From assembly GCA_964591715.1 (NCBI GenBank), contig CAZQDR010000003.1, positions 269 to 64,268 on the forward strand: a stretch of 64,000 nucleotides of DNA. The letters run 5' to 3'. Positions 13-38,470 of the stretch are shown piece by piece. The notes under the pieces were generated by a model. That model was not told the origin of the DNA. It searched no databases and saw nothing but the letters and a program-made list of their open reading frames with translations. The translations under genes and the position numbers were made by a program. The stretch comes from an uncultured Candidatus Saccharibacteria bacterium. Lineage in GTDB: Bacteria; Patescibacteriota; Minisyncoccia; Phycocordibacterales; JACOZG01. Position 1 is the stretch's first letter. Every line of letters begins with the position of its first letter.

Positions 13-34
13 AAAAAACCGCCCCAGGGGGCGG
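13..34 (-). terminator. Intrinsic terminator or attenuator hairpin
   Basis: CCGCCCC-A-GGGGCGG stem followed on the minus strand by T6. An upstream GGCGGC can alternatively pair with the GCCGCC that overlaps the stem. Confidence 0.5.
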
Positions 35-8031: not shown

Positions 8032-10020
8032 TTACTGAGGCAACGAAACCGTACCAGTTCTCCAGTCGGTCAAACCGGCCATGAAGGTGCTGGTGTTTAC
8101 ATCACTACCATTCAATGACGATTTGATTGCTTCGACACCAACCGCGTATGAGTCGAGGGTCGTAATACCCGCAACACCAGCCGCAGATTTGTCCAAGAAG
8201 GTGAAGGTAACCGGAATAGTTACATCATTACCGTCGGTGATCTTAGCCTTCTGGCCAGTAAGGAGGCCAGTAGTGATCACGCCAGCGTTTGAAGGAATAG
8301 TGAAGTCCGTCGTTGAAGCAACTGGGAAGGCCGTAAGCGTACCACCCTTGTAGATACCTAAGACAAAGGTAGAGGAAGCTGACTGCGTTCCGAGGTAAAC
8401 GTCAGAACCAACCGCCTTAACGTTAACGTTGAACTTGGCAGTAACCGTCGTAGTAGCGCGGCCATTACCATCATTGTTGGTCTCAGCAGTAATCGTAGGC
8501 GAACCAACGATAGTAAACTGAGGACCAGCACTGACAATGTACATCGTGTTACCAGCGGCGCTGCCTGACTTGTCGGTGATTACATCACCAACAGTGTTCT
8601 CAACCGTAACATCGGCATTAGCAACAGAAACGCTAATTGGCGAGGCTACAGAAGTTGCGCGGCGGACATCAGCCTTGATCGTAAGGGTCTTGGTAGAGTC
8701 CTTGGCAATCAAAACATCCAAGTCCGAGAAGGTGGCACGAGTGGTACCAGTCTCAGCACTGTCAATCTCGGTGGAACCGTCGTAGAGATAGATAGTAGTG
8801 GTGGTAGCACCGGCACCAGAAACCGTCGAGCTAGCGAGAGTAACAGTCAAGTCAGTCATGGTCAAATCATCCTTCTTGGCTTTGAGATCAAAGGTCAAGA
8901 GAGACAACTTGTTGTACTCGTTATCATTGCTGCCATCCGTAGCCGCAATCTGGCCAGAGAGAGGGTTGCTGCCACTGGCAGAAACCGTCAATGAAGCAGC
9001 GTCGGTTAGGGAAGAATCAACATTGATAGCACGGCTAACTGAGGAACCCGTAGCTGGGGAGTACTGGTCAATGCCAGCGCCATCCATACCGCGGATACCA
9101 TCATTAGCTAACTGAACCGTGTAAGTCTCGGTGTCAATATCGGTTGAATCGATACTGTCGCGAACGTCAGCCTTGATCGTCAAAATCTTGCTGGAGTTCT
9201 TTGGAACAACCAGGTTGATTCCGGCCAAAGTGATGTAGTAGCGCCCACCATCCTTAACTACCGTTGAGGAGTTAAGATCAGCAGAAGCCAAAACAGTTGA
9301 ACCATCCGTCACATAGACCTTTTGATAGATCTTGTTGTAGATAGCCGTTGAAGCACCGAGGTCTAACTTGACACGCTGGATAGCAATGTCTGAGTTCTTA
9401 GCCTCAACCTTGAAACCAAGGATTGCTGCCATGTCATCTCCTTCGTAAATCGTTGAGTTAACACCGACACTTGAAGAAGTAACAGAAAGCGTACCCTCGA
9501 TACCAGGAGTGGTGATCGTGCCTGTGCAGGAAGCACCCGTAACTGGATTAACTACCCAACCAGCCTGGCAACCAGAAGTGGTGGTCGTAGTGGTGGTCGT
9601 AGTCGTAGTACCACCCATCATCGCGTTGATAGCGGCGCGGGTCTGAGGACCAACCTGACCGACTTGGGCAATGCCCTTAGCGGCCTGGAAGGCTAGAACA
9701 GCGGCCTTGGTCTGTGCACCAAAGTAACCCGTTGGACCAGCTGGAATCGTATAACCATTACCTTGCAAGAAGTTCTGCAAAGCAGTAACTTCAGCGCCCC
9801 TGCTACCTACAGCCAACTGTTGGGTAAGCATTGCTGAACCAGTCGTGCTCGTGTTGCTACCACCCAAAAGAGCGGTCAACGATTGGAGCAAAGCTGGGTT
9901 AGCGGTCAAAGCGGCCATGATCTGATTAGCAGTCAAGGTCTCGGCGCCAGCGATCGAAACCGTCGCGCTCAAGGCCAAGGCTACTACAGCCAAGCCAACA
10001 AATAATTTCTTAATACTCAT
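8032..10020 (-). CDS. Large secreted surface protein: PG-binding domain, poly-Thr linker, repeated Ig-like modules
   Basis: Signal peptide; PG_binding_1-like GSRGAEVTALQNFLQGNGY...GAQTKAAVLAFQ; a T9 linker; and two copies of ...KTLTIKADVR... modules. Confidence 0.6.
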   Translation of the reverse strand: MSIKKLFVGLAVVALALSATVSIAGAETLTANQIMAALTANPALLQSLTALLGGSNTSTTGSAMLTQQLAVGSRGAEVTALQNFLQGNGYTIPAGPTGYFGAQTKAAVLAFQAAKGIAQVGQVGPQTRAAINAMMGGTTTTTTTTTTTSGCQAGWVVNPVTGASCTGTITTPGIEGTLSVTSSSVGVNSTIYEGDDMAAILGFKVEAKNSDIAIQRVKLDLGASTAIYNKIYQKVYVTDGSTVLASADLNSSTVVKDGGRYYITLAGINLVVPKNSSKILTIKADVRDSIDSTDIDTETYTVQLANDGIRGMDGAGIDQYSPATGSSVSRAINVDSSLTDAASLTVSASGSNPLSGQIAATDGSNDNEYNKLSLLTFDLKAKKDDLTMTDLTVTLASSTVSGAGATTTTIYLYDGSTEIDSAETGTTRATFSDLDVLIAKDSTKTLTIKADVRRATSVASPISVSVANADVTVENTVGDVITDKSGSAAGNTMYIVSAGPQFTIVGSPTITAETNNDGNGRATTTVTAKFNVNVKAVGSDVYLGTQSASSTFVLGIYKGGTLTAFPVASTTDFTIPSNAGVITTGLLTGQKAKITDGNDVTIPVTFTFLDKSAAGVAGITTLDSYAVGVEAIKSSLNGSDVNTSTFMAGLTDWRTGTVSLPQ

Positions 10021-10405
10021 AAATTGTAATAACTAATAAATTTAAACACCAAAACCTGGTGATCCATTTTAGCTTCGACAGTCACTAAAATTTCTCACCA
10101 TTTTCTAAATTTTACTAATCCTTCAAGCTAGCAGCCTAGGCCCTGTTCGACATGGCCCCGCCCACCAGAGAGAAGGTTAATAAACAATGGAACTTAATTA
10201 AGTGGATTTCAGATGAATCGGACATTCAGTAATTATTTAATTTTCAACGTTCCACCAAGACGGAAAAAACTGCCGTATCTGTTTGAGTAATTATAGTATT
10301 AGAGCCCCCCTAGCTGCAAATCCGGTGTGGATAAACCTCTTCAGTGAGGCGCTAATACTGCCTAAGCACTATATACCAAATGACGAGCTAAGTCAACGGC
10401 GATCT

Positions 10406-11059
10406 CTAGGGTATTAAGCGGTAGCGACTCCAGCGGCGATCACCTTCGCGCGAGACCTGACCCAGGCGAACCAAGTCAGATAATTCGCGCTGAACAGTCT
10501 TGTTGCTAACAGCTGGAACAGCTTGAGAAATGTCCTTTATGGATGATTCGCCGTGACTTTTTAAAAAGCGCAAAATCTGATCGCGGCGCGAACTGGCCGC
10601 CTCAGTTGCCTTAACGGGCAGGCTCGGTCGAGGCTCAATTTGTCTCTTAACTGGCTCCGGACTAGCGGGTATAGCGGCTGGGGACTTATTCTCGACCAAA
10701 TAAGGCGTGAGACTGGGTAACGGCTCGGCAATTACCGCCTGTTTCTCGCGCAGCAAAAGCTCTCCCAAACTTTGGTACTCTTGCTTCAAAATCGTCAGAT
10801 TCATCTCGGAAACTTGATGGGCCAAGAGCGCAATATCCAAGTAGCCAACCATCTGATTGATCGCGGAAAGTGAACCCTCGGGAGTGAGGGGGTTGATCTG
10901 CTTAGCAACAGCCAAAGCTTGCTCCCGCAAATGCCATTTGAGGGGGTCATTATCGTGCAAAAAACCACTAATTAGATAAGTGGCGCTGGCCAGCTTTTGG
11001 GCCTTTAAGACAGCCATTTCCTTTACGTTGTCTTTTAGATTATTGTCCTTTTGCTCCAT
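10406..11059 (-). CDS. Putative transcriptional regulator (helical N-domain plus C-terminal DeoR-type wHTH)
   Basis: C-terminal RDQILRFLKSHGESSIKDISQAVPAVSNKTVQRELSDLVRLGQV. Confidence 0.5.
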   Translation of the reverse strand: MEQKDNNLKDNVKEMAVLKAQKLASATYLISGFLHDNDPLKWHLREQALAVAKQINPLTPEGSLSAINQMVGYLDIALLAHQVSEMNLTILKQEYQSLGELLLREKQAVIAEPLPSLTPYLVENKSPAAIPASPEPVKRQIEPRPSLPVKATEAASSRRDQILRFLKSHGESSIKDISQAVPAVSNKTVQRELSDLVRLGQVSREGDRRWSRYRLIP

Positions 11060-11087
11060 GGCTTTTATATGTCCTTTATTATATATA

Positions 11088-11105
11088 GGACAAAACGTTT
11101 TGTCC
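11088..11105. promoter_or_regulatory. Perfect 18-bp palindrome GGACAAAACGTTTTGTCC in a divergent promoter region
   Basis: Read directly from the sequence. A third TGTCC half-site lies at 11070-11074. Confidence 0.5.
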
Positions 11106-11135
11106 AGTGGACGCTAGTGTTATACTAATAGGCAC

Positions 11136-13352
11136 ATGGCCCGCCCCAAGAAGAAAGCTGCTAAAAAAGCAGTCGAGAAAGCCGAACCCGCCGCCCCGCT
11201 TTTGAAGACGGAAACGCTCCACGGCATCCTAGCGGTGGCCTGCTTTGCGGCAGCCCTGTTCTTCCTCTTATCGGCCACCCCCTACGCCGGGGCGGCAGGT
11301 GAGTTTACCTACAACTTCTTTGCCAAAATGTTCGGCACCGGCTTCTACGCTATCCCGATTGTCTTGGCGCTTTTGGGTATCTCCTTTATCCGATTGGTTC
11401 GACCCAACTTTGTGGTAGTTCGCCTAGTCGCTGGCCTAGTTTCCTTTATCGCCTTCCTGGCCATTATTAGTACGGTCTTCCATAACTCCGCCTCCGTCAG
11501 CGGTGGCGTCATTGGCACAGCGATCGCCAGTCCCCTCACCCAACTCTTTAATATCTACAGCCTAGTGCTGCTCTTCGCCCTGGTGATTATTTCGCAACTC
11601 GTCCTCTTTGATACTCACATCCGACGTCACTGGTTTACCCCCTGGCGCTACTTCCGCCGGGCCGAGATTGGCGAGGGAGAAGTAGGTATTACTCTCGCCC
11701 CTGATGCCATGGTTCCCAGCCTAGAAGCCGCGCCAGTAATGGCAGCCGCCACCAAGGAAGAAGAAATTAAAACCGAGAGCAAGCCGCTTAAAACTACCGA
11801 GCCGCCCACCGAGGAAGAGTCCATCTTTTCGCGCTTAACCAGCTTTGGTGGTAAGCGTTCTTACAATACAGAGTTCACTCCCCCGCCACTTAATCTTTTA
11901 GAGCACGATAGTGGCAAGCCGGGCGCCGGTGACATTAAAGCTAACGCCAATATCATTAAGCGGACGCTCCAGAACTTTGGCATCATGGTGGAAATGGATG
12001 AAGTGTCTATCGGTCCCTCCATTACTCGCTACGCCTTAAAACCAGCCGAGGGCGTTAAGCTCTCGCGCATTCTGGCTCTCCAAAATGATCTCTCGCTGGC
12101 CCTCGCCGCTCACCCAATTCGAATCGAAGCGCCAATCCCCGGCAAGTCACTGGTGGGTATCGAAATTCCTAACCGCACCAAATCAATTGTGGGCTTGGCG
12201 TCACTAATTGGTAGCAAAGAATTTAGCGAGTCACCTAACCCGCTCATGGTCTCGCTCGGCCGCGGCATTACTGGTATCTCCCACTTTGCCAACGTGGCTA
12301 AAGCGCCCCACTTACTGATCGCTGGTACTACCGGCTCGGGTAAATCGGTCGTTATCCACACCTTTATTACCTCCCTGCTTTATCGCAACGCTCCAGACCA
12401 ACTGCGCTTTATTATGATTGACCCTAAGCGCGTCGAGTTAACGCTCTATAATAAGATCCCCCACCTGCTTACCCCCGTGGTCACTGATCCAAAAAAGGCG
12501 ATCATGGTCTTAAAGTGGGCCATTAAGGAAATGGAACGGCGTTACAACCTGCTTGAGCAACATACCGTCCGCGACATTCAGTCGTATCACAAAAACATTC
12601 TGGAACCCGCCTACTCTCAAGTGGCCGGCCGCACCCTAACGCCCGAGGAGGAGACCGCCCTGCCGGAGAAGATGCCTTATATCGTCGTTATCATTGATGA
12701 GTTGGCCGATATCATGTCCACCTATCCACGCGAACTCGAGGCCGCTATTGTACGCCTCGCCCAAATGTCACGCGCCATCGGTATCCACTTAGTCCTCTCA
12801 ACCCAGCGACCGTCGGTGGAGGTTATTACTGGTTTGATTAAAGCTAACATTCCCACTCGGATCGCTCTCCAAGTCGCCTCGCAAATTGATTCCCGCACGA
12901 TTTTGGATATGGCTGGCGCCGAGAAGCTCTTAGGTTCGGGTGACATGCTCTACCTCTCGGGTGAAATGTCGAAGCCAAACCGCCTCCAGAGTGCCTTTAT
13001 CTCTGAAGAGGAGGTTAAAAAAGTGGTTGGTTATCTGGCCACAAACTATGGCGACCAAGCCGCTGACGAATTAGCCCTCAATACCGCTGAGGCTGGACCA
13101 TTTACCAGTGTTGACCTTGAGGACGACGGTGGTGGCGAAGGTGATGATGACGAACTTTACGAGGAAGCCCGCGAGATTGTCATTAAGGCTGGCAAAGCCT
13201 CCGCCTCCTACTTACAACGCAAATTAAAAGTGGGCTATGCCCGCGCTGCTCGCCTACTCGATATGCTGGAAGAGCGCGGCGTCATTGGTCCTGGCGAAGG
13301 AGCTAAACAACGAGAAGTCTATGAGAAAGATACTGCGCCGACTGAGTTCTAA
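11136..13352 (+). CDS. ftsK: DNA translocase FtsK/SpoIIIE
   Basis: N-terminal TM helices, Walker A GTTGSGKS, the IVVIIDELADIM box, and a C-terminal gamma-domain YLQRKLKVGYARAARLLDMLEERGVIGP. Confidence 0.92.
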   Translation: MARPKKKAAKKAVEKAEPAAPLLKTETLHGILAVACFAAALFFLLSATPYAGAAGEFTYNFFAKMFGTGFYAIPIVLALLGISFIRLVRPNFVVVRLVAGLVSFIAFLAIISTVFHNSASVSGGVIGTAIASPLTQLFNIYSLVLLFALVIISQLVLFDTHIRRHWFTPWRYFRRAEIGEGEVGITLAPDAMVPSLEAAPVMAAATKEEEIKTESKPLKTTEPPTEEESIFSRLTSFGGKRSYNTEFTPPPLNLLEHDSGKPGAGDIKANANIIKRTLQNFGIMVEMDEVSIGPSITRYALKPAEGVKLSRILALQNDLSLALAAHPIRIEAPIPGKSLVGIEIPNRTKSIVGLASLIGSKEFSESPNPLMVSLGRGITGISHFANVAKAPHLLIAGTTGSGKSVVIHTFITSLLYRNAPDQLRFIMIDPKRVELTLYNKIPHLLTPVVTDPKKAIMVLKWAIKEMERRYNLLEQHTVRDIQSYHKNILEPAYSQVAGRTLTPEEETALPEKMPYIVVIIDELADIMSTYPRELEAAIVRLAQMSRAIGIHLVLSTQRPSVEVITGLIKANIPTRIALQVASQIDSRTILDMAGAEKLLGSGDMLYLSGEMSKPNRLQSAFISEEEVKKVVGYLATNYGDQAADELALNTAEAGPFTSVDLEDDGGGEGDDDELYEEAREIVIKAGKASASYLQRKLKVGYARAARLLDMLEERGVIGPGEGAKQREVYEKDTAPTEF

Positions 13353-25791: not shown

Positions 25792-26376
25792 TTAGAGGTG
25801 ACTGTGGTGTAAGGCTTGATTAATAATTTCGAGCGCCAGCTGCTGGCGCTCGGCCGACAACTCGAGCGGCGCCATGTCCCAGTCGTTGAAAGCAAAAATG
25901 ACCTCGAGCTCCGGGCGCTCCTCTACATAACCCAAACGGCGCAAAAGCCGCGCCACCCAAATTAGCTCAAAATTGACTAGCTCCGCTTCGGTCAAAAAAG
26001 GTCGTTCCAAAAAATGGGCTCCGCTTTTAAACTCCTCAAAAAAATCGGGCTGGGCCACTTCACCGGTTACTAAGCGCAAAATCAGTTGGGCAACCCGGGC
26101 CAGGAGCTGCAGGCGCACCGCTTCGCGGTGCGCCGCCAATTCCCCCGCCTCAACATGCACCACGCGCCAGACCTCCCGGCCTCGCACCAACGAGACCTCC
26201 GGCCAACTAAATAATTGCAGATTATAACGGAGCTTAGACTTTAATTCCCGCAAACCTTGGGCGGTAGCGTTAACCAAACCGTGATCACGCGTATACAAAG
26301 TCAGCGTCCGGGTTGCTTCGCTCGCCTCTCGGACACCCAACACGACCGCTGGCGTGGTGTAAATTTGATGCGACAT
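25792..26376 (-). CDS. recO: DNA repair protein RecO (short form)
   Basis: N-terminal OB-like TPAVVLGVREASEATRTLTLYTRDHGLVNATAQGLRELKSKLR. The start overlaps the ileS stop (TAATG). Confidence 0.6.
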   Translation of the reverse strand: MSHQIYTTPAVVLGVREASEATRTLTLYTRDHGLVNATAQGLRELKSKLRYNLQLFSWPEVSLVRGREVWRVVHVEAGELAAHREAVRLQLLARVAQLILRLVTGEVAQPDFFEEFKSGAHFLERPFLTEAELVNFELIWVARLLRRLGYVEERPELEVIFAFNDWDMAPLELSAERQQLALEIINQALHHSHL

Positions 26377-29300
26377 TATTCGTAACGAAAAGCGCTCGCG
26401 CAGGTCGCGACTTTTATTTCGTGCTCATACTTCTCGGCCAAGCTCTGTTTGGCAATCGGTATAACCACTTCCGCTTGTTCTCCTGCCTTCAAGCCGCTTT
26501 CTTTACGCCAATCCTGAATTTCGCGAATCAAATCGCGCAGTTCCCCCTCCTCCTTAAGTTCAGGAGTGATAGTCAAATCAAGTTCTACCACTGCCGACAA
26601 GTTAGGATCAAAGATTACCGCTTTAACATTTACTTCGTCTTGGATAAGTTGAGCCAGTTCAGCGGAGAGCGGAGCACTTTTGGCTTTAAGTTCTTTTAGT
26701 GGTTGGCGAACTTTAATCGCGGCTTTGGCTCGCGCCTCTAAGCCACCCGAGACGAGCTGGCGCACGAGTTGCATCGCGGTAATAATTTCTTCGTCGCTCT
26801 TGTCGGCCTCGGGCCAATGCTCTAAGTGCACGCTCTCCGCGCCACCTTTCAATTTCAAATAAATTTCCTCAGCAACAAAGGGCGTAAATGGGGCCATCAA
26901 GCACGACAACACCAACAGCGTCCGGCGGAGCGTATCCATCACTGCCTGCGCCTCAGCGGGATCAGTGGGCTTAAAGCGATCGCGCGACCGGCGTAAATAC
27001 CAAGTTGATAAATCGTCCACAAATTCGTCGATGGGCCGCAAAGCCCGATCAAGCTCATAAGACTCCATCGCCGCTGTTACTAATCCAATCACTTCGTTAA
27101 GCCGGTCGTTAATCCAACGATCTAAAATATGAGTACTAGCGGCATCGCTCGGAACGTGGGCGCCGGCGTACAGTTCATAAAACGCCACCACGTTCCGCAG
27201 ACGGCCCAGCACCCGATTACTGGTCTCGCGCAAACCACGCTCCGAAAAATTAAATTCTTCAGCATGTACCGCTGGTGATGAGAGCAAGTAAAAACGCAAC
27301 GCGTCCGCGCCAAAAGTATCAATCGTGGGTTCCAGATCGGGATAATTTTTTAGACGCTTAGACATCTTTTGGCCATCCTCGGCTAAAATCAAACCATTCA
27401 CTACGACACGCTTAAAGGGGGGGCGATTAAAAAGTCCCAGCGAGAGCACCAGCAAAACATAAAACCAGCCGCGAGTTTGATCCAAACCTTCGGCAATAAA
27501 GTCCGCGGGAAAATGCTTTTCAAACTCTTCCTTGTTGGCAAACGGATAATGTAACTGGCCGTAAGGCATGGAACCGGACTCAAACCACACATCAAAAACA
27601 TCGGGTACGCGCGCCATCTCGGCACCACACTCGCAACGGAGTTTAACCTCATCAATATACGGCCGGTGAAAGTCGAGCTCGTAGGCTTGATTGTGCGGGA
27701 GAGCGACAAAGGGCAGTGGTCGCGATTCGGCGGTTTTTAAAAAGTAACGATCCTCACTCTGCGCGGCTTCGGCCTCGTGATCATTAAAGCCTTGGGCTCC
27801 CACCATCAATAACCAGCCCACCGCTTCGTGAGTGATCAGTAAAATATTTTTACCCGCATAACGAGCGTCAATCTCATACAGCGACTGGAGCGCCCGCGCC
27901 TTCACCTCATGAAAGTTTTCCCCCGCTGGTGGCGCCTTAGTAAAGCGCTCGGCTCGACCACTGAAAAAAGCGTGGAACTTAGCCACCGACCCCCCCTCCA
28001 ATTCGCCAAAGCCCACCTCGCGCAGGCGCTCATCCAAAACCACTTGATCGGCCGGTACTCCTAAAGCCTCCGCCATGAGCGCCGCCGTCTCTCGTGTTCG
28101 CAAAACTGGCGAAGTAATGATCAGATCAATTTTTTCCTTAGCCAAAGTTTTACCGGTGGCTTCTACTTGCTCACGGCCATTTTCCGTTAAATGATTGTCG
28201 CCATCGAGCGCCGAGGTAACAATGCTTTGTACGTTCGACTGGGCCTCGCCGTGACGCATGACCCAATAATTATTTTTTGGCTGCCGCTTAGCAGTGAGCT
28301 CCTCGAGTGAGCCAATCACTTCAATTTTTTTGCAGCTTTCGCAACGCCAGACCGGTAGCGGCGCCCCCCAGTAACGCGAACGCGATACTGCCCAATCGCG
28401 CGCCCCCTCCAGCCATTTACCAAAGCGACCGTCTTTAATATATTCCGGCACCCAAGTTACGCCCTCGTTTGCCTTCAAGAGTGCCTCCTTCATCGTACTT
28501 ACAGCAATAAACCAGGATGATGACGCGTAGTTTAAGAGAGGTGTATCGCAACGCCAACAATGAGGGTAGGGGTGAGTAATTTTTTCCTTCGCAAAAAAGG
28601 TGCCATGCTCCTGCAAATATTTTAAGACTGCAATGTCAGCCGAGAGACGCTCCTTCTCATCTTCACTCTTGGGTTTAACTGGCAGACCGGCAAAATCTTT
28701 GACCGCCGCTTTAAAGTGACCGCTAGTATCAACGTGCTGGATAAAAGGTAAATTTTTAGCCTGACCCAACTTTAAGTCGTCCTCGCCGAATGCCGGTGCA
28801 ATATGGACAATGCCGGTACCATCCTCGGTTGTCACAAAATCCGCGCCGTAAACCTGCCAACCGTTCTCCTTATTTTTCAGCGTCGTATCATTCTGATAAT
28901 AATCAAAAACTGGTTGATACTTTTTACCCACCAATTTTTGTCCGGTAAATGTTTCTTCAATGGTAAAATTATCGGTTAAAACTTTTGTGGCCAGCGCCTC
29001 CGCCACAATCAACTTAATTCCGCCCTTTTCGACTCGAACATAGTTCAGTTCGGGATTAACCGCCAGCGCCACATTACCTGGCAGCGTCCAAGGTGTCGTG
29101 GTCCAGGCCAACAAGTAAGTCCCCGGCTCATCAACCAGTTCAAATTTTACCGTCACCGACAAATCCGTGACATCTTTGTAACCCTGATTAACCTCAAAGT
29201 TAGCCAGCGTTGTCTCACAGCGCGGGCACAAATGCATAGACTTGTAACCTTCGTAGGCCAAGCCCTTGTCGTAGAGTTGTTTAAAAATCCACCACACCGT

Positions 29301-29771
29301 CTCGGTGTAACTGGAGTCCATCGTTTTATAATCGTTCTCCATGTCCACAAAACGGCCAATGCGGGGAATAATCCTTTTCCACTCGTCAGCATAACGGAGC
29401 ACGCTCTCTCGTGCCTTTTGGTTAAAGACGTCAATCCCCAACGCTTCAATATCCTTTTTGGTTTTTAGACCCAACTCTTTCTCGATCAGGTTCTCGATCG
29501 GCAAGCCGTGACAATCCCAACCCCAGCGACGCGCCACTCTAAAGCCGCGCATGGTTTGATAGCGTGGAATAGCGTCTTTAATCGAGGTCGGCAGCAAGTG
29601 ACCAAAGTGAGGCAAACCGGTCGCAAAGGGCGGCCCATCATAAAAAACGTACTCGCCTTTGGGCGCATCTTTAGCCAGGGACTTGGCGAAAATTTGGTGA
29701 TCTTGCCAGAACTTAAGGATCTCTTCCTCGCGTTTGGCAACATCGGATTTTTGGGGCAGAGCTTCGGCCAT
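26376..29771 (-). CDS. ileS: Isoleucyl-tRNA synthetase with an inserted histidine-phosphatase domain
   Basis: PPFATGLPHFGHLL (HIGH region), the editing-domain WTTTPWTLPGN, and KMSKRLKN. The ~195-aa insert carries RHGE...SPVLRTRETA...THE motifs; see findings. Confidence 0.9.
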   Translation of the reverse strand: MAEALPQKSDVAKREEEILKFWQDHQIFAKSLAKDAPKGEYVFYDGPPFATGLPHFGHLLPTSIKDAIPRYQTMRGFRVARRWGWDCHGLPIENLIEKELGLKTKKDIEALGIDVFNQKARESVLRYADEWKRIIPRIGRFVDMENDYKTMDSSYTETVWWIFKQLYDKGLAYEGYKSMHLCPRCETTLANFEVNQGYKDVTDLSVTVKFELVDEPGTYLLAWTTTPWTLPGNVALAVNPELNYVRVEKGGIKLIVAEALATKVLTDNFTIEETFTGQKLVGKKYQPVFDYYQNDTTLKNKENGWQVYGADFVTTEDGTGIVHIAPAFGEDDLKLGQAKNLPFIQHVDTSGHFKAAVKDFAGLPVKPKSEDEKERLSADIAVLKYLQEHGTFFAKEKITHPYPHCWRCDTPLLNYASSSWFIAVSTMKEALLKANEGVTWVPEYIKDGRFGKWLEGARDWAVSRSRYWGAPLPVWRCESCKKIEVIGSLEELTAKRQPKNNYWVMRHGEAQSNVQSIVTSALDGDNHLTENGREQVEATGKTLAKEKIDLIITSPVLRTRETAALMAEALGVPADQVVLDERLREVGFGELEGGSVAKFHAFFSGRAERFTKAPPAGENFHEVKARALQSLYEIDARYAGKNILLITHEAVGWLLMVGAQGFNDHEAEAAQSEDRYFLKTAESRPLPFVALPHNQAYELDFHRPYIDEVKLRCECGAEMARVPDVFDVWFESGSMPYGQLHYPFANKEEFEKHFPADFIAEGLDQTRGWFYVLLVLSLGLFNRPPFKRVVVNGLILAEDGQKMSKRLKNYPDLEPTIDTFGADALRFYLLSSPAVHAEEFNFSERGLRETSNRVLGRLRNVVAFYELYAGAHVPSDAASTHILDRWINDRLNEVIGLVTAAMESYELDRALRPIDEFVDDLSTWYLRRSRDRFKPTDPAEAQAVMDTLRRTLLVLSCLMAPFTPFVAEEIYLKLKGGAESVHLEHWPEADKSDEEIITAMQLVRQLVSGGLEARAKAAIKVRQPLKELKAKSAPLSAELAQLIQDEVNVKAVIFDPNLSAVVELDLTITPELKEEGELRDLIREIQDWRKESGLKAGEQAEVVIPIAKQSLAEKYEHEIKVATCASAFRYE

Positions 29772-30012: not shown

Positions 30013-31611
30013 TCACATCTGGTCCGGAGTCTGTATCCCCAACAGCCCGAGGCCATTTTTGAGCACTTGGGCGACGGCCGCCGTCAGTGCCAAGCGATAG
30101 TTCTCGTTCTCACTGCCAATAATCCGATTTTGGGCATAGTAGGCGTTAAAAGCCGAGGCCAGCTCCAGCAAGTAAGTCACAATATAGTTTGGCGCCAATT
30201 CTTGGGCCGCAAATGCCGCCAGATCCGGGAAACGAATTAATAATTTCTCTACCGCTGTCGCGTCCTCCGCCACTAACTCGACTGCCAAATTCGGCGCCTT
30301 AGCAAGAATAGACTGCGCGCGCACGGCAGTGTACTGCAGGTAAGGACCGGAGTCGCCTAAAAAGGAGAGCGATTTTTCTAAATCAAAAATAATATCGCGA
30401 CCAGGCGCCTGTTTCAAAATCGAATATTTAATTGCGGCCACCGCAATCGGCTCAGTCACATCCTCCCGCGCCTTCATCGCCTCGGCTAATAAAAATTCCG
30501 CCGTAATGACATCGCCAGTCCGGGAAGACATTTTTCCGGTTGGCAAACGAAGCATCCCGTGAGCCACATGTTTAGTTTTAGCGGCCAAGTCAGGAAAAAC
30601 CAACGACATCGCCTTTAACAACACTTTAAAATAGGCTTGGATTTCGTTGCCGGTCACCACGATCGACTGATCATACGGGAACTCGTCAAATTTAATTTTA
30701 GCTAGCCCCAACTCCTTCGCTTCATAAGTCGGCAACCCGTCCGAGTTAATAAAAACTCGGGTATGTAAGCCCTCCTCTTCGGCTCCCTTAAAGACTACGG
30801 CGCCATCGCTCTTTTCAAACACTTTACCTAAGTTATCCTCCACCACCTGCTTACCAAACGGTCCCGCCGCACTCTCAAAGAAATAATAATCAAATTTAGT
30901 CCCCAGCTTCTCGTAAATGGTTTCGAAATATTCTAAACTGACCCGCCGACCCTCGTCATAAATTTTATTAATTGCCTCGTCGCTCTTGTCATAAATCTTT
31001 TTGTTGATTTCTCTGATCGCCGCCTCGTCACCCTTGGTGGCGCCGTAGGCGTAGGCCTCGCCGAGCGTTGCGGCCGAGAGTTGGGCGGGCTTAAGTTCAA
31101 GTAACCCCCAAACCGCCCTGGCGACGTGTAACCCGACATCACCCTGATAACACGCCCGTTTAACCTCCGCGCCACTAAAAGCCAAGAGGCGGGACAGTGA
31201 CTCGCCGATCACATTTGGCATCAGGTGACCAATGTGAAATTCTTTAAATGGATTAGGGTCGGTATACTCGACAATCACTTTTTGCCCGGCCAGCTTTTGA
31301 CCACGACCATAATTCTCCTTCTCGCTTAAAACTTTTTTAATTTCCGCTGCAAAAACGGAGGTGGCTAAATAAAAATTAATAAAACCTGGACCGGCCACCT
31401 CCACCTTGGCCAACCACTCGGGTTTATCAGCTAAAATTTTTTCCTTAATTTTCTCCGCCACGGCTTTGGGATTCTCTCCCGCAGTTTTAGCGGCAACCAT
31501 GGCGACGTTAGAAGCAAAATCTCCGTGCGCCAAATCAGCCGGATATTCGACGGAAAATTTAACGGGCGCCTCCAGCACCCCCTCAATTAGTTTTTTGACC
31601 ACCTCTTTCAT
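30013..31611 (-). CDS. argS: Arginyl-tRNA synthetase
   Basis: EYTDPNPFKEFHIGHL (HIGH region) and the typical class I Arg C-terminal DALR domain. The start was placed at the third ATG because the -10 element overlaps the first two. Confidence 0.9.
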   Translation of the reverse strand: MKEVVKKLIEGVLEAPVKFSVEYPADLAHGDFASNVAMVAAKTAGENPKAVAEKIKEKILADKPEWLAKVEVAGPGFINFYLATSVFAAEIKKVLSEKENYGRGQKLAGQKVIVEYTDPNPFKEFHIGHLMPNVIGESLSRLLAFSGAEVKRACYQGDVGLHVARAVWGLLELKPAQLSAATLGEAYAYGATKGDEAAIREINKKIYDKSDEAINKIYDEGRRVSLEYFETIYEKLGTKFDYYFFESAAGPFGKQVVEDNLGKVFEKSDGAVVFKGAEEEGLHTRVFINSDGLPTYEAKELGLAKIKFDEFPYDQSIVVTGNEIQAYFKVLLKAMSLVFPDLAAKTKHVAHGMLRLPTGKMSSRTGDVITAEFLLAEAMKAREDVTEPIAVAAIKYSILKQAPGRDIIFDLEKSLSFLGDSGPYLQYTAVRAQSILAKAPNLAVELVAEDATAVEKLLIRFPDLAAFAAQELAPNYIVTYLLELASAFNAYYAQNRIIGSENENYRLALTAAVAQVLKNGLGLLGIQTPDQM

Positions 31612-31618
31612 TGCCATC

Positions 31619-31654
31619 ATCCTAGCATTTTTCGGACAAGAAAAAAGCCCCGCG
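31619..31654 (-). repeat. Copy 2 of the terminator-tail/promoter cassette upstream of argS
   Basis: ATCCTAGCATTTTTCGGACAAGAAAAAAGCCCCGCG. Confidence 0.8.
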
Positions 31655-31686
31655 TTTCTCTGTCGTTAAACAGAAAAATGCGGGGC
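31641..31686 (-). terminator. Intrinsic terminator after the 31702-32292 gene
   Basis: GCCCCGC...GCGGGGC outer stem with a nested inner helix, followed by T6 on the minus strand. Confidence 0.7.
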
Positions 31687-31701
31687 ATGAGGCACGCCAA
31701 C

Positions 31702-32292
31702 TCAGCGGGAGAATACCCGACTGCCGTCGCGCCACTCACGCGGACCCTCGACCGCACGGGCGTTCACGCCCCAACCGGCCTTAAGCCAGTCCACACCGAC
31801 CAAGAGCAGAACTCCTTCAGCGTCGCGAACGTAAAAGATGTTCACGTAACCATTGTTAAGGAGCGCGCCACTCTCGCCTTTCGCCTGCCGACTGATCAGC
31901 TGAACAATGGCGGAAAGCGTGGTCTCCACCTTCTCCTCTCCACCCAACTCGGCGATGATTCGTAGATCGCGAGACTGCTTCCTGAGTCGGTGGGAGCGGA
32001 GCACAGTCTCCGGCTGCGGTTCCTCCACCTTGTTGCCGAACCAAGTCTTGAAGTTCTTACCAAGCCAGGCGATACCACTCTGGCCGACGACCAACTCCTG
32101 TTCGGCAACGAACTTGGCCGTGGTCGCGACGATGGTGATAGTAGTGAGGAAGTCGAGAATGCTGTCCACGATTTCCTCAATCACCACCTTTGCCTTTCCG
32201 GCGAGCAGGCTCTTGGCGTTCTCCTCACCAATAATGTTGATGAGCGCTTCCACCTGACCGAACGACCAACCGCTATACTTGTAACTAGCCAT
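31702..32292 (-). CDS. Hypothetical protein, paralog A of an unknown family
   Basis: Start re-picked at MASYKYSGW (ATG at 32292). The C-terminal ~130 aa align with the 32500-32994 product. Confidence 0.6.
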   Translation of the reverse strand: MASYKYSGWSFGQVEALINIIGEENAKSLLAGKAKVVIEEIVDSILDFLTTITIVATTAKFVAEQELVVGQSGIAWLGKNFKTWFGNKVEEPQPETVLRSHRLRKQSRDLRIIAELGGEEKVETTLSAIVQLISRQAKGESGALLNNGYVNIFYVRDAEGVLLLVGVDWLKAGWGVNARAVEGPREWRDGSRVFSR

Positions 32293-32388
32293 AGCACACA
32301 AACCTTTCCGGCTAAAAGCCGAGAAACTGCCTCTACCCGAGGTGGGGGCTGTATTCACTCGAATCCAGCGTTTCAAAGAACTAATATT

Positions 32389-32417
32389 AGTATACACCTA
32401 ATTACCCTATTTGTCAA
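32389..32417 (-). promoter_or_regulatory. Sigma70-type promoter TTGACA-17-TATACT for paralog A
   Basis: -35 at 32412-32417 and -10 at 32389-32394. A ~95-nt leader follows. Confidence 0.6.
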
Positions 32418-32445
32418 TAATAGAAAGTGGCTTAAATTGGCGATA

Positions 32446-32479
32446 AAAAAGAGCCCCATCACTGGTGTGATAGGGCTCG
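32446..32479 (-). terminator. Intrinsic terminator after paralog B
   Basis: GAGCCC...GGGCTC hairpin followed by T6 on the minus strand. Confidence 0.65.
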
Positions 32480-32499
32480 GGGTCAGGGGCACAACGGGC

Positions 32500-32994
32500 T
32501 TAGCGGCGGGCGATGTCGACGGAGAAGAAGCGCACTTGGCGACTCTTCAACCAGCCGTCGTAATCGGCCCAAGTCAGGCCAACATTCCAGCGTCGGGAAT
32601 ACTTAAAGAGAACGACGCATCGAGGCTGCCGGCGGCCGTCCAGGATATTGAACAGATTCAACCCGCCATCGGCAATCAGGGCGTCGCCACCCTGGGACGA
32701 TTGATCAATCAACCAAGCCAGGTCGGCCAAGGTCGTATGGGCTCGAGCCCACTCGGCGAGAGAGACCTCCATCTCGGCCCGATTGGACCAATTTGAAGAT
32801 TGATCCCACCTCAACTGCGCCGCCGCCTGGGCCGCCTCCACCTTGTCGAGGAAGCTGTTCCTAAAGTGGGGTGATAGAGCCGCTGGGTCGAACCGCTCGG
32901 CGGTGAAGAACTTGGCGGCCACAAACCGTGGCAGGGCTGGCCGAACAATGGCTGCTGGGCTCTGAATTACCGTCGCACTACTCGTTACCATCAT
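32500..32994 (-). CDS. Hypothetical protein, paralog B of an unknown family
   Basis: Start re-picked at MMVTSS (ATG at 32994), preceded by GGAGGAGG. Confidence 0.6.
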   Translation of the reverse strand: MMVTSSATVIQSPAAIVRPALPRFVAAKFFTAERFDPAALSPHFRNSFLDKVEAAQAAAQLRWDQSSNWSNRAEMEVSLAEWARAHTTLADLAWLIDQSSQGGDALIADGGLNLFNILDGRRQPRCVVLFKYSRRWNVGLTWADYDGWLKSRQVRFFSVDIARR

Positions 32995-33042
32995 TTCCTC
33001 CTCCCGGGGAAAATATAACAAACAACAGATACTCCACCCTTG

Positions 33043-33071
33043 TTTATACCTCTTCTTTAACCTATTGTCAA
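33043..33071 (-). promoter_or_regulatory. Sigma70-type promoter TTGACA-17-TATAAA for paralog B
   Basis: -35 at 33066-33071 and -10 at 33043-33048. The first 15 nt resemble the paralog A promoter. Confidence 0.55.
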
Positions 33072-33073
33072 CT

Positions 33074-33502
33074 CTACTTGCGGCCCGTGCTACCAAAAGC
33101 ACTGGTGCCCCGAGAAGAATCGGCCAGTTCAGCGGCTTCTTCCAACTCGGCGACCGCGACGGGATAAATGATAAGTTGAGCCACCTTATCCCCCACTTCA
33201 ACGGTATATGCCTTGTCGCTCAAATTAACCAAGTGAACATTATACTCGCCGCGATAACCAGCATCGAACACGCCACCCATGGTATGTAATCCTGCTTTAG
33301 AGATACTCCCCTTGTCTTTAATAATCGCCGCATAACCAGCTGGGAACTCTAAGGCAAAACCCAAATGGAATCGCGCGTGATCACCCGGCAGAATAGTTTG
33401 TTCTTCTAGAGCATACAAATCTAATCCGGCGTCTCCAGGATGACCATAGGTTGGCTGCTTTGCTTCCGGCTTTAATTTTTTAAACTTTATGGACAGGGAC
33501 AT
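33074..33502 (-). CDS. dut: dUTP diphosphatase (trimeric dUTPase)
   Basis: GDAGLDLYA, GVFDAGYRGE, and the C-terminal RGTSAFGSTG motif. Confidence 0.9.
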   Translation of the reverse strand: MSLSIKFKKLKPEAKQPTYGHPGDAGLDLYALEEQTILPGDHARFHLGFALEFPAGYAAIIKDKGSISKAGLHTMGGVFDAGYRGEYNVHLVNLSDKAYTVEVGDKVAQLIIYPVAVAELEEAAELADSSRGTSAFGSTGRK

Positions 33503-35454: not shown

Positions 35455-35943
35455 TTATTTTTTACGACTGCCGTGGAATCTGAGATGGGCATCATCCGTA
35501 ACATACAGCGTTTTTATCCCCGCCTCCAGCATCCGCTCCCAGCAAGGTTGGCAGGCCCACCAGTGACCCCACAAATAGACTTCCGCCCCCGCGGTGACTT
35601 CCCCATTTTTTATTGCATCCGCCACGGCTCGTGATTCTGAGTGAAGCTTGTAATTAGAGCACCCCGGACAAAGCCAATACTTTTGGCCAGTTTTAATTTT
35701 TAACTTGTGCCGGACACACCAACCCTTGGTGTGAAGATCAGCCAAAAAAGCATTCTTTAGTGCTGATTGATTGGCTCCCCGACCGATAATTTTACCGCCC
35801 TCAACAACCACCGCCCCACTTGGCTGATTACGTTCCGTGGCCGACTGAAAACGCATTTTCTTGGCTTCAGCCATAAATTGGTCCGTCTCAGGCACCAACT
35901 TAATCTCGCAACCAGCAGGCAAATAAGGGTAGATAATCGTCAT
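35455..35943 (-). CDS. Cytidine/deoxycytidylate deaminase-fold zinc enzyme (dCMP deaminase-like) with an extra Cys-rich insert
   Basis: An HSE zinc/catalytic motif (KLHSESRAV) and PCxxC (CQPCWERM). The insert is CVRHKLKIKTGQKYWLCPGC. Confidence 0.65.
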   Translation of the reverse strand: MTIIYPYLPAGCEIKLVPETDQFMAEAKKMRFQSATERNQPSGAVVVEGGKIIGRGANQSALKNAFLADLHTKGWCVRHKLKIKTGQKYWLCPGCSNYKLHSESRAVADAIKNGEVTAGAEVYLWGHWWACQPCWERMLEAGIKTLYVTDDAHLRFHGSRKK

Positions 35944-35967
35944 GTGGCCATTGTCTCATAGCTCTAG

Positions 35968-35973
35968 TATAAT
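35968..35973 (+). promoter_or_regulatory. -10 element TATAAT 9 nt upstream of the thyA-like ATG
   Basis: Read directly. Only a weak -35 (TGGCCA at 17 nt) is present, and there is no SD. Confidence 0.4.
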
Positions 35974-35982
35974 TGGCAAAAT

Positions 35983-36819
35983 ATGACCGCCTTTGACCGA
36001 ATCTACCAGAATCTGTTAAGGCAAATCATGACCGAGGGCATTGCGGAAATGAGCGAGCGCACCGGCCACGAAACCCGGGCCATCCCCGGCCTCCACTTTA
36101 CGACCGACCTCCAAAAAGACGGCTTCCCCCTACTTACCCTGCGCAAAATACCAATTCGGGTCTTCGTGGCCGAGCAAATTTGGTTTCTCCTTGGCTCGCG
36201 CAAACCAGCCGACTTTCTGCGGGAGTACACTAAAATTTGGGATGACTTTACCAACCCAGGCGATGTCGTCACGGTCGCTTACGGTTACCGTTGGCGCAAA
36301 CATTTTGGCCGCGATCAAATCGCCCTGTTGATTGAACTTTTAACCAAGGAGCCAAGTTCGCGCCACGGCGTCGTAATTGCTTGGGATCCAGCCCAGGATG
36401 GCTTGTCGCTGTTTAAAAAGAAAAACGTCCCCTGTCCCTACACCTTTACCGTTAATATTATTGGCGGACACCTCCATCTCCACAACATGATTCGCTCTAA
36501 CGACGTCATGCTCGGCATGCCTCACGACGTGGCGGGCTTTGCTTTGCTCCAGTGCATTTTAGCCGAACGATTAGGAGTAAAGCCGGGCATTTACTCGCAC
36601 TCTATTTCTAACGCTCATGTTTACGACATTCACTACTCAGCCGCGGAAGAAATAATTAGCCGCCACAACGATCATCCTAATGTGACACTCGAGATTCCCG
36701 CCAACACCTTTGCCCGGATCGAGAACCGCGACCCGGCGATAGCCAAAGAACTAATCGATCAACTGACTAACCAGTACACACCAATGGATGCCATTAAAGG
36801 TTTACAAATTGTCCTCTAA
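35983..36819 (+). CDS. Thymidylate-synthase-family C5-pyrimidine transferase with Asp at the base-specificity position
   Basis: ThyA-like motifs DRTG-like ERTGHET, FPLLTLRK, YGYRWR, DQI, SSRHGVVIAWDP, PCP (Cys151), and RSNDVMLGMPHDVAGF (Asp182). Confidence 0.8.
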   Translation: MTAFDRIYQNLLRQIMTEGIAEMSERTGHETRAIPGLHFTTDLQKDGFPLLTLRKIPIRVFVAEQIWFLLGSRKPADFLREYTKIWDDFTNPGDVVTVAYGYRWRKHFGRDQIALLIELLTKEPSSRHGVVIAWDPAQDGLSLFKKKNVPCPYTFTVNIIGGHLHLHNMIRSNDVMLGMPHDVAGFALLQCILAERLGVKPGIYSHSISNAHVYDIHYSAAEEIISRHNDHPNVTLEIPANTFARIENRDPAIAKELIDQLTNQYTPMDAIKGLQIVL

Positions 36820-37316
36820 TGATTCCAGCGTTTATTATTGCCAGCGTGACCGCCGACGGCCTGATTGCCCGTGATGCTAGTCACGCGGCCACCTGGTCCA
36901 GCCAAGCTGATAAAAAGTTTTTTGTGACCCGAACCAAAGCCGCTGGTGCGATCATTATGGGCGCTAAAACTTTTGCCACTATTGGCCGACCCCTCCCAGA
37001 ACGCTTAAATGTGGTTTACACCCATCAACCTTCACCTCACCCTGAAGTCTTGGCCACCGCTTTGCCGCCAGCGGAACTACTGGCGGAACTTGAGCGCCGG
37101 GGCATTAGGGAGGCGGCCATTTGCGGGGGCAGTTCAATTTATACGCTCTTTCTTAAGGCCGGCCTGGTCCAGAAAATTTATTTAACTGTTGAACCACGCC
37201 TCTTCGGCCAAGGCCTCTCGCTTTTTAATCAGGAACTGGACCTCACCCTCAAGCTTTTGTCGACTCAACAATTAGCCCCAGACGTCGTATTATTGGAGTA
37301 TCAAGTAATCACCTAA
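36819..37316 (+). CDS. RibD C-terminal / DHFR-fold reductase
   Basis: IIASVTADGLIA...IIMGAKTF...GGSSIY pattern. Coupled to the upstream gene by a TAATG overlap. Confidence 0.6.
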   Translation: MIPAFIIASVTADGLIARDASHAATWSSQADKKFFVTRTKAAGAIIMGAKTFATIGRPLPERLNVVYTHQPSPHPEVLATALPPAELLAELERRGIREAAICGGSSIYTLFLKAGLVQKIYLTVEPRLFGQGLSLFNQELDLTLKLLSTQQLAPDVVLLEYQVIT

Positions 37317-37318
37317 TC

Positions 37319-37960
37319 ATGGCTGTTATCACCAAAGAAGACATTATCGAACGAATCAAGGGAGGGAGCTTAAAGTTTGTCCCCAATCTCGACGTCTTCC
37401 AGCTTCAAAGCCACTCGGTTGACTTGCGGCTGGGCTTTACTTTTATGCTGCCCAAGATTTGGCATCTCACTACCCGCGGCCGCGAGTCACTCGACATCCT
37501 CCATTTTGATAAACGGACTCAAGAATATTTTGATATCGTAGAACTAGAGGAGGGTCAATACTTTGATCTCTTGCCTCAAGAATATATTTTGGTTTCCACC
37601 CTCGAGACTTTAACTGTCCCTAAAGATTTGATGGCTGTGCTTTATCCGCGCTCCTCGACCAATCGCAAAGGTTTGTCGCTCGACTTAACGGGCATTATTG
37701 ATTCGGGTTACGAAGGCCAGCTAAGCTTACCGATTCGCAATAATACTCGTTCGCAAACAGTGCGACTTTATCCGGGCGAGCGTCTCTGCCAAGTGGTTTT
37801 TGAAGAACTAACCCAAACAATTAACCCGCGCCAAAGTAAGTATCACCAGCGTGACATCATTGACGGCGTTCAGCGCGAAGCCGAAACGGAAGTTAAGTTG
37901 TTGTTAGCCGGAAAAATAAAAGAGTTAAAGCGTGACCACGCTGTCGAGGGCTTGATATAG
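37319..37960 (+). CDS. dCTP deaminase/dUTPase-fold protein lacking the deaminase Glu
   Basis: SVDLRLG, PRSSTNRKGL, and IIDSGYEGQLSLPIRN. Pro138 sits where E. coli Dcd has Glu138. Confidence 0.7.
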   Translation: MAVITKEDIIERIKGGSLKFVPNLDVFQLQSHSVDLRLGFTFMLPKIWHLTTRGRESLDILHFDKRTQEYFDIVELEEGQYFDLLPQEYILVSTLETLTVPKDLMAVLYPRSSTNRKGLSLDLTGIIDSGYEGQLSLPIRNNTRSQTVRLYPGERLCQVVFEELTQTINPRQSKYHQRDIIDGVQREAETEVKLLLAGKIKELKRDHAVEGLI

Positions 37961-38470
37961 CTCTTCCACCTCGCCATTGTTATTGATCACCACCGAAGCG
38001 GCGTCTTTAAGCGACCGGATTTGAATCTCGGTTTCCAGTTGCTGATCTTTTTGAAATTGCTCCCAAGTTTTGCCGTTATCATCTGGATTCTCACCGCGAA
38101 CTGATAAACGCTTAAATCGAACCTCCGGGTCAGCCTCAAGATAAATTAATTTAAATTGGGGTAACTTTTGGAGAGCCTTAATGTCAGGCAAGCGACGGAT
38201 ACCATCAATGACCACCAGATCAGTCTTGGCGCCCGCCGCGTCCTTGGCCACTATCTCGGAAAATAAATCTTCGCCGAAGGTCTGGCGCAAGGCCAGCGAC
38301 AGTGCCGACATGTTCTCTCGCGTCTCGGTTAGATACAAGCGAGCCATAACGTCGCGCAGTGGCGTAGAAAAGCGATACGACTCGGCGTTAAACTTTTTAG
38401 CTAAATATTTCGTACTGAACGTCTTTCCTGAAGCCATCTCCCCCGTCAAACCAATAATTAATTTAGCCAT
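37925..38470 (-). CDS. P-loop nucleotide kinase (dNMP-kinase / CoaE-like)
   Basis: GLTGEMASGKT P-loop, YRFSTPLRDVMA, VIDGIRR, and terminal VINNNGEVEELY. This resembles T4 gp1-type dNMP kinases, from memory. The 3' end overlaps the convergent dcd-like gene by 36 nt. Confidence 0.5.
   Translation of the reverse strand: MAKLIIGLTGEMASGKTFSTKYLAKKFNAESYRFSTPLRDVMARLYLTETRENMSALSLALRQTFGEDLFSEIVAKDAAGAKTDLVVIDGIRRLPDIKALQKLPQFKLIYLEADPEVRFKRLSVRGENPDDNGKTWEQFQKDQQLETEIQIRSLKDAASVVINNNGEVEELYQALDSVVTL

Follow-up and report, generated by a model that had tools for sequence, protein, structure and literature searches.

Two genes between argS and dut of an uncultured Saccharibacteria bacterium as members, without a retroelement, of a family of variable proteins

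Introduction

What are the two small genes that lie between argS and dut in a 64,000-nt stretch of a contig from an uncultured Candidatus Saccharibacteria bacterium (hereafter the window), and how did they come to stand side by side? Both are on the minus strand, at the positions that the initial annotation had chosen for them (Table 1), and are called here gene A, next to argS, and gene B, next to dut. That annotation described them as a tandem pair of paralogous unknown genes and assigned a separate promoter and terminator to each. Do they form a new system or do they belong to one already described? Is the pair the product of a local duplication? The answer reached here is that the pair is explained by members of a known family, namely variable proteins targeted by diversity-generating retroelements (DGRs), which in this window have no retroelement beside them, and not by a new system. 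We are confident, if short of certain, of the explanation as a whole: both would be DGR variable proteins of the candidate phyla radiation (CPR), gene A being a module that bears a variable region (VR) with no DGR nearby and gene B an older offshoot.

In DGRs, such as that of the Bordetella phage BPP-1, a reverse transcriptase (RT) and the protein Avd reverse-transcribe the RNA of a template repeat (TR), misincorporating opposite adenines, and the resulting cDNA replaces the VR of the target gene. An AAY codon that is mutated in this way can come to encode 15 amino acids and never becomes a stop codon. A DGR is further marked by an RT and its accessory Avd in the same genome, as a rule next to the target, by recognition elements at the 3' end of the VR (the IMH and a stem-loop or flanking element downstream) and by hypervariation that populations show in the VR only. 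The first survey of DGRs in the CPR is said to be that of Paul et al., in Nature Microbiology in 2017. A later survey described a 'clade 2' of DGRs restricted to Patescibacteria, whose targets are typically devoid of transmembrane or other recognisable domains and probably carry novel variants of the C-type-lectin fold (Roux et al. 2021, PMC8144416). The same work pointed out that remote targets are undetectable by surveys centred on the RT.

A family of variable proteins and its retroelements

Where are the relatives of gene A found, and what stands beside them? A word-indexed search returned 40 relatives, the named ones being assigned to Paceibacterota, Wolfebacteria or Patescibacteria, and a profile compared with 1.84 billion cluster representatives (50% identity) gave 4,177 matches at E<=1e-3 and 1,047 at E<=1e-30. 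The family is found mostly in metagenome-assembled genomes (MAGs) labelled as Patescibacteria. The nearest relatives of gene A (68% and 50% identity) lie beside retroelement cassettes in unrelated loci; it was the comparison of homolog neighbourhoods, proposed in the initial annotation, that revealed TR, Avd and RT next to them. The gene of one 50% identical homolog (P0005) is followed by a bAvd gene and then by an RVT_1 reverse transcriptase, and the same is true of a second homolog (P0017). Three loci whose family genes are 50-68% identical to gene A have cognate VR/TR pairs. In the first of them (L005) the final 116 nt of the family gene recur 472 nt downstream with 83% identity, and all the differences but one, a C/T difference near the 3' edge, fall at adenines of the downstream copy. 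Mismatches between VR and TR likewise fall at template adenines in the other two, L006 and L011, the latter carrying the closest relative of gene A.

How general is this arrangement? Relatives of gene A display both the cassette layout of a DGR and adenine-specific differences from TR to VR. A set of 80 family loci was collected from species-representative genomes with the peptide GYANIFY[VI], a pattern outside which gene A itself falls (GYVNIFYV), and 62 of them, those in which the downstream sequence extended for 3 kb or more, were taken as informative. In 31 of these 62 the target is followed by a TR and then by RT and/or Avd, with Avd on the opposite strand and a full-length RT in most; one has a TR only, four have fragments of RT or Avd without a TR, and 26 have none of these. 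Over 38 VR/TR pairs, 673 of 761 mismatches (88%) lie at TR adenines, the VR being the last ~110 nt of the gene. Mean adenine content in the family is 9.5% in the VR and 26.7% in the rest of the gene.

The 120 nt past the VR contain degenerate tandem repeats of the GACCCT/CCTTTG(A) type, with a mean of 2.8 motifs against a background of 0.21 (39 cognate loci). GACCCT is enriched 55-fold past the VR (examples are L022 6516-6635 and L053 6489-6608). The repeats are present in 74% of cognate loci and also in verified remote targets (see below), and loci without a DGR have a mean of 2.8 motifs too (most of 26 loci). They could take part in target recognition, or could belong to an element between VR and TR. 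Neither gene A nor gene B is followed by repeats of this type.

Is gene B a member of the same family? BLASTP aligns the products of the two genes with E=6e-8 and 27-28% identity over 98 amino acids (aa), and a profile of the gene A family, built without gene B, finds gene B in hhalign with a probability of 97% (E=1e-10, 139 columns). The paralogy asserted in the initial annotation is therefore real, and by these alignments it is distant and old. As far as sequence comparison can tell, A and B are both members of the variable-protein family on which Patescibacteria DGRs act. The label 'unknown' no longer applies to them: by the measure that the initial annotation had set itself, assignment of both to a family by homology, they fall in a recognised class, though one without a curated model. 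Neither gene is matched by Pfam or NCBIfam, and PADLOC and PHROGs gave chance-level matches only (E 0.008-0.044). For the family at large, none of 38 aligned members matches Pfam, with no FGE-sulfatase, DUF1566, Lectin_C or similar domain at E<=0.1.

What might these proteins look like? The predicted models are confident (pLDDT 92.8 for gene A and 85.6 for gene B). Profile and structure searches, also proposed in the initial annotation, gave a mixed answer: each model, searched by itself, brings up C-type-lectin/FGE-like folds, among them TvpA, a DGR variable protein of Treponema, with low structural scores, and neither the sequence-profile search of the PDB nor Foldseek against the PDB returned anything significant. 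The domain of the family is probably a divergent C-type-lectin-like one. In the model of gene A the ten variable codons introduced below occupy alternating positions of adjacent strands (162-170 and 173-180) and the loop that follows, so that the ten residues would lie on one face, as judged from secondary structure only. In a DGR of this family, errors at adenines would randomise about ten AAY codons in the last ~110 nt of the target gene. The randomised residues would form a ligand-binding face on the C-type-lectin-like scaffold, with a repertoire of the order of 15^10.

Two proteins have several copies of the domain: P0043 (926 aa) has five in tandem with a repeated linker (…VVIDAGEPVVVVPEQPK…), and P0044 (379 aa) has two behind an N-terminus that resembles a signal peptide. 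Most family members, A and B among them, lack a signal peptide, and A and B have no membrane segment either, in agreement with the initial annotation. The N-terminus of P0044 suggests that some members may be exported.

In some loci the DGR beside the family gene has apparently decayed or been rearranged. An M16 peptidase gene stands in L012 (6001-8438) and L008 between the target and an opposite-strand open reading frame (ORF) of 82-83 aa, which is a candidate Avd-like gene without a Pfam match, and no RT comes after it. Four GTDB loci (L016, L028, L051 and L057) have fragments of RT or Avd only, without a TR.

How do the two genes compare with the systems already described? Like the targets of CPR DGR clade 2 (PMC8144416), the family proteins are small, have no recognisable transmembrane or Pfam domain and carry a C-terminal VR of ~110 nt; their relatives show the succession of target, TR, Avd (opposite strand) and RT, with adenine-specific mismatches, mainly in Patescibacteria-labelled MAGs. 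Unlike that clade, genes A and B are accompanied by neither TR nor Avd nor RT in the 64 kb. They also differ from their DGR-bearing relatives, gene A in lacking the post-VR repeats and the short tail, gene B in lacking a VR signature and in its narrow lineage. Three DGR variable proteins of the C-type-lectin fold have known structures, the Bordetella phage protein Mtd, TvpA of Treponema denticola (PDB 2y3c) and Thermus TaqVP. To these identity is at most 9%, structural scores are low and Foldseek is not significant. Compared with these three, the window proteins are much smaller (a domain of ~150 aa) and have no FGE-sulfatase/DUF1566 signature and no lipoprotein or tail-fibre context.

The variable region of gene A

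Does gene A carry the trace of a DGR? Alignment with three VR/TR pairs places its VR equivalent at residues 161-196. At the positions where templates have AAC or AAT, gene A has G166 (GGT), D168 (GAC), L170 (CTT), G175 (GGC), N177 (AAC), R179 (CGT), G183 (GGT), R185 (CGT), R188 (CGC) and S191 (AGT), and the scaffold codons between them are kept. Adenine makes up 9.9% of the VR and 23.5% of the gene outside it. Each of the ten codons is NNY, including 8 of 8 codons for amino acids of the four-fold type (P=0.026 against the background of the gene itself); this is the pattern expected if only positions 1 and 2 of AAY codons were rewritten, with little drift since. The end of the VR (...TTCTCCCGC) is kept where TRs have ...CGA, and the stop codon follows directly on the last shared VR codon, without the short tail of the relatives. 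Our reading is that gene A is probably expressed as a binding protein, the specificity of which would have been written by a DGR.

How would such a gene arrive between dut and argS? A syntenic locus in a relative (L002) is informative. There the flanking proteins are 93-97% identical to those of the window, and only an ortholog of gene B lies between dut and argS. The segment of gene A, made up of promoter, leader, ORF and terminator, begins in the window right after the T-run of the gene B terminator, the point at which L002 continues with argS. At its edges this cassette has a 12-nt direct repeat whose two copies, TTTTTTATCGCC (32450..32439) and TTTTTTCTTGTC (31646..31635), match imperfectly. 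Judged from this alignment, gene A would be an inserted self-contained module, or else it would have been precisely deleted in L002. In the mechanism that we propose, a VR-bearing copy housed in a promoter-leader-ORF-terminator module would have been put between the gene B terminator and argS.

Several observations weigh against the explanation as a whole. No TR-like repeat of the 3' end of gene A or gene B was found in the window (word-7 blastn), nor any RT or Avd (tblastn with two family-linked RTs and Avds), the window being a small part of the genome. The NNY statistic of gene A is modest. The missing post-VR repeats belong in the same list, yet in a gene that ends at its last VR codon their absence would argue for a stranded copy.

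Is gene A still being rewritten? On balance we think it slightly more likely than not that it is a stranded copy, now frozen. The chief alternative, that a DGR on another contig, with a TR matching 31705-31812, goes on rewriting gene A as an active remote (trans) target, is a credible one, though not what we expect. Remote targets do occur in the family. When family copies were compared with a TR on another contig of their own genome, one (L093 against the TR of L088) was 91% identical and had all 10 of its mismatches at adenines, and two others had 14 of 17 (L029 against L040) and 23 of 29 (L025 against L023) at adenines. In having no local cassette, genes A and B resemble such remote or orphan VRs and the 26 of 62 informative loci noted above, several being matched by a TR on another contig. 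The VR of gene A is moreover intact, poor in adenine and NNY at all ten positions, and the window covers a fraction of the genome only. But verified remote copies share the sequence past the VR with the cognate copy, including GACCCT/CTTTGA-type repeats, whereas gene A has no such repeats and a different downstream flank. No matching TR was found in the window, and neither a matching TR nor variants of the VR by a scan of JGI metagenomes with a degenerate pattern derived from the gene A VR; the scan gave seven loci, all of them other family members (~50% identical to gene A, most with their own DGRs). Finally, the lone second assembly that offers a view of the population (L001, 2 kb) does not differ from the window (100% identity), but it is independent only as an assembly and perhaps comes from the same sample.

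Gene B, probably an older offshoot

What, then, is gene B? Only two clusters of its type (90% identity) exist among 5.8 billion proteins, and a profile search with the B type added none. In L002-L004 it is the ortholog (P0042) that stands between dut and argS, and its protein does not vary over the 9 contigs (3+4+2) for which it is recorded. At the DNA level gene B resembles no TR of the family, it shows no shortage of adenine (15% in the VR equivalent, 18% elsewhere), and no TR or RT was found near the ortholog in the 12.5 kb of L002 examined. The changes between gene B and its ortholog are spread over the whole protein, and many of them are synonymous. With dN of 0.256 against 0.02-0.05 in the neighbours, dS of 1.29 against ~0.5 and dN/dS of 0.20, gene B changes at roughly ten times the pace of the genes around it. 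In our reading it branched off long ago within the variable-protein family, has probably lost the DGR hallmarks, has become independent of the retroelement and now changes by ordinary but fast substitution. Its constraint would be purifying and comparatively loose or shifting, it appears fixed in a narrow lineage, and it is presumably expressed from its strong predicted promoter.

Could both genes instead be enzymes or lectins of the FGE-like/C-type-lectin fold whose housekeeping role is fixed and bound up with the nucleotide-metabolism and tRNA-synthetase genes around them, the link of their relatives to DGRs being incidental? This is very unlikely: an FGE-sulfatase or other Pfam match is found in 0 of 38 members, a DGR is aimed at exactly this domain in half of the homolog loci, homologs stand in unrelated neighbourhoods, and the pace of gene B is far from that of its neighbours.

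Promoters, terminators and the leader of gene A

How are the two genes predicted to be expressed? The initial annotation had given each its own near-consensus promoter and its own intrinsic terminator, and this stands. The promoter of gene A agrees with the consensus at 11 of 12 positions, and both of its hexamers are kept upstream of the closest homolog (L011). That of gene B was skipped by the promoter scan, which demands a final T, and was read directly; L002 and L003 show hardly any change in its -35 box, spacer and -10 box, in contrast to the divergent transcribed spacer downstream. The gene A terminator (66 nt folded, 31636-31701) has a minimum free energy of -27.5 kcal/mol (z=-4.0), and the gene B terminator has z=-4.5; 0 of 200 shuffles were as good in either case. 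The latter terminator is kept in L002, with argS directly after it. A small hairpin just past the stop codon of gene A (31698..31684) was considered as a DGR-type cruciform and rejected; the evidence is weak and the hairpin lies directly upstream of the terminator stem (31685..31647).

Between its promoter and its start codon gene A has a leader of ~65 nt that is predicted to be structured. Its two hairpins have the form CCUC-GGGYA-GAGG and UCYCGRC-UUUYA-GYCGGGA, and the helix that encloses them pairs CCCC with GGRG. Only 3 leader positions differ between gene A and L011, though the proteins share 68% identity. A covariance model places the leader directly against the start codon of the family gene in six more loci, all distinct (Table 1); an eighth match, L001, has the same sequence as the window and was not counted as distinct. 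In the alignment 90% of cells are paired and 9 pairs show compensatory changes, the observed score being reached in 0 of 500 shuffles. The folding energy of the single sequence is unremarkable (z=0.47), and an Rfam scan of 31500-33200, leader included, gave nothing near threshold. The leader may be a translational control element.

Does the likeness of the two promoters mean that they were duplicated together? The initial annotation took their shared start as a sign that the duplication had included the regulatory region. A promoter of the type TTGAC[AT]-16..18-TAnnnT, with starts such as TTGACAA, precedes 53 of 79 family loci (the background expectation is 0.036 per 430 nt), and many of these read TTGACAAA...GGTGTATAAT. 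As the consensus is family-wide, the shared start is no proof of co-duplication. A plain and recent tandem duplication of a lineage-specific unknown gene, promoter included and unrelated to retroelements, would fit two adjacent paralogs on the same strand whose promoters start alike, but it is hardly credible given the low protein identity of the pair, the lack of gene A in the syntenic relative (which holds the gene B ortholog only), the DGR-linked loci elsewhere that house the closest relatives of gene A, the family-wide promoter consensus, and a leader that gene A has in common with distant homologs and not with gene B.

Second copies of the family gene a few kb apart are seen in other genomes (L054, 3330-3478 and 6348-6496; L089, 2427-2551 and 3385-3509), with VRs ~81% identical and no adenine bias. 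Paralog clusters like the A-B pair thus occur elsewhere.

The locus and its neighbours

Table 1. Features of the A-B locus (positions in the window unless a locus is named; minus, reverse strand)
Feature	Position	Strand	Description
argS	30013-31620		Flank of gene A; Pfam label via syntenic locus L002
Gene A cassette	31635..32450	minus	~0.8 kb, absent from L002; three-way junction alignment with L002
Gene A terminator	31641..31685	minus	Predicted 17-pair stem-loop (helices of 7 + 10 pairs) 31685..31647, then T6 31646..31641
Gene A	31702..32292	minus	196 aa; Patescibacteria DGR variable-protein family; N-terminal helical pair and divergent C-type-lectin-like domain (predicted model)
Gene A VR equivalent	31705..31812	minus	Residues 161-196; alignment with three VR/TR pairs
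Gene A 5' leader	32293..32356	minus	Predicted two small hairpins inside a helix pairing CCCC with Shine-Dalgarno-like GG(A/U)G; ~65 nt, abuts start codon
Gene A promoter	32389..32417	minus	TTGACA-17-TATACT; 11/12 consensus positions
Gene B terminator	32445..32478	minus	Predicted 12-bp stem 32478..32451, 4-nt loop, T6
Gene B	32500..32994	minus	164 aa; deeply diverged paralog of gene A, narrow lineage; predicted fold as gene A; without DGR signature
Gene B ribosome-binding site	32997..33004	minus	GGAGGAGG; read in sequence; conserved, almost invariant, in L002 and L003
Gene B promoter	33043..33071	minus	TTGACA-17-TATAAA; starts 2 nt past dut stop codon; read in sequence
dut	33074-33502		Flank of gene B; Pfam label via syntenic locus L002
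Leader copies	L011 3589-3659; L087 2172-2242; L070 2389-2454; L014 1983-2054; L092 5945-6017; L091 5945-6013		Covariance model

The product of gene A is matched exactly by a public record (P0001, 196 aa), and that of gene B by a record of 163 aa (P0041) which starts at the second Met. A long plus-strand ORF (31990-32796) and upstream extensions of A and B (231 and 233 aa) were rejected as genes because promoters and terminators lie inside them. No third paralog was found in the window. The segment had seemed G+C-rich by eye, and computation agrees: 57.4% in gene A and 59.6% in gene B, compared with 48.9% in the window and ~49% in argS and dut. Is this a sign of foreign DNA? G+C is above the flanks in 74 of 74 family loci (means of 55.3% for the gene and 42.8% for the flanks); the excess is a trait of the family and does not single out this window as having recently received foreign DNA.

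The pair is flanked by a compact thymidylate/nucleotide-metabolism cluster (window 35455-38470; L002 1-5919), conserved in the relative, with genes for dCMP deaminase, thyA, folA, a dCTP deaminase-like protein, glyA, tmk and dut. An isoleucyl-tRNA synthetase gene lies on the minus strand at 26376-29771 (1131 aa; L002 counterpart 8414-11752), and the Pfam listing of the L002 ortholog has a His_Phos_1 (histidine-phosphatase) domain between the tRNA-synt_1 halves. The window and L002 versions of this synthetase are just 67.6% identical (dN 0.256), compared with 93-97% for the six other housekeeping genes compared (dut, tmk, glyA, dCMP deaminase, argS and recO).

Perspectives

Two hypothetical genes can now be recognised as members of a family of CPR DGR targets. 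Annotators and RT-centred DGR surveys miss such copies because this family of more than 4,000 clusters has no curated model. The pair bears on the role of DGR targets of the CPR that are not membrane proteins, and on their fate once they are separated from the retroelement: gene A keeps a VR that looks freshly written within a cassette that appears transplanted, and gene B is fixed and rapidly evolving, with a conserved strong promoter. Do such genes move and gain new roles on their own? We offer tentatively, and as a rather unlikely whole, the reading that variable-protein genes of the CPR move as autonomous promoter-leader-ORF-terminator modules and are exapted as binding proteins independent of retroelements, with A freshly stranded, B older, fast-evolving and in a lineage-specific role, and the leader an undescribed cis-regulatory RNA that gates expression. 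If this were true, the leader of the gene A subfamily, by sequestering the Shine-Dalgarno sequence, would be a previously undescribed cis-regulatory RNA for DGR variable proteins. The leader RNA and the post-VR repeats would offer handles on the regulation and targeting of these DGR systems.

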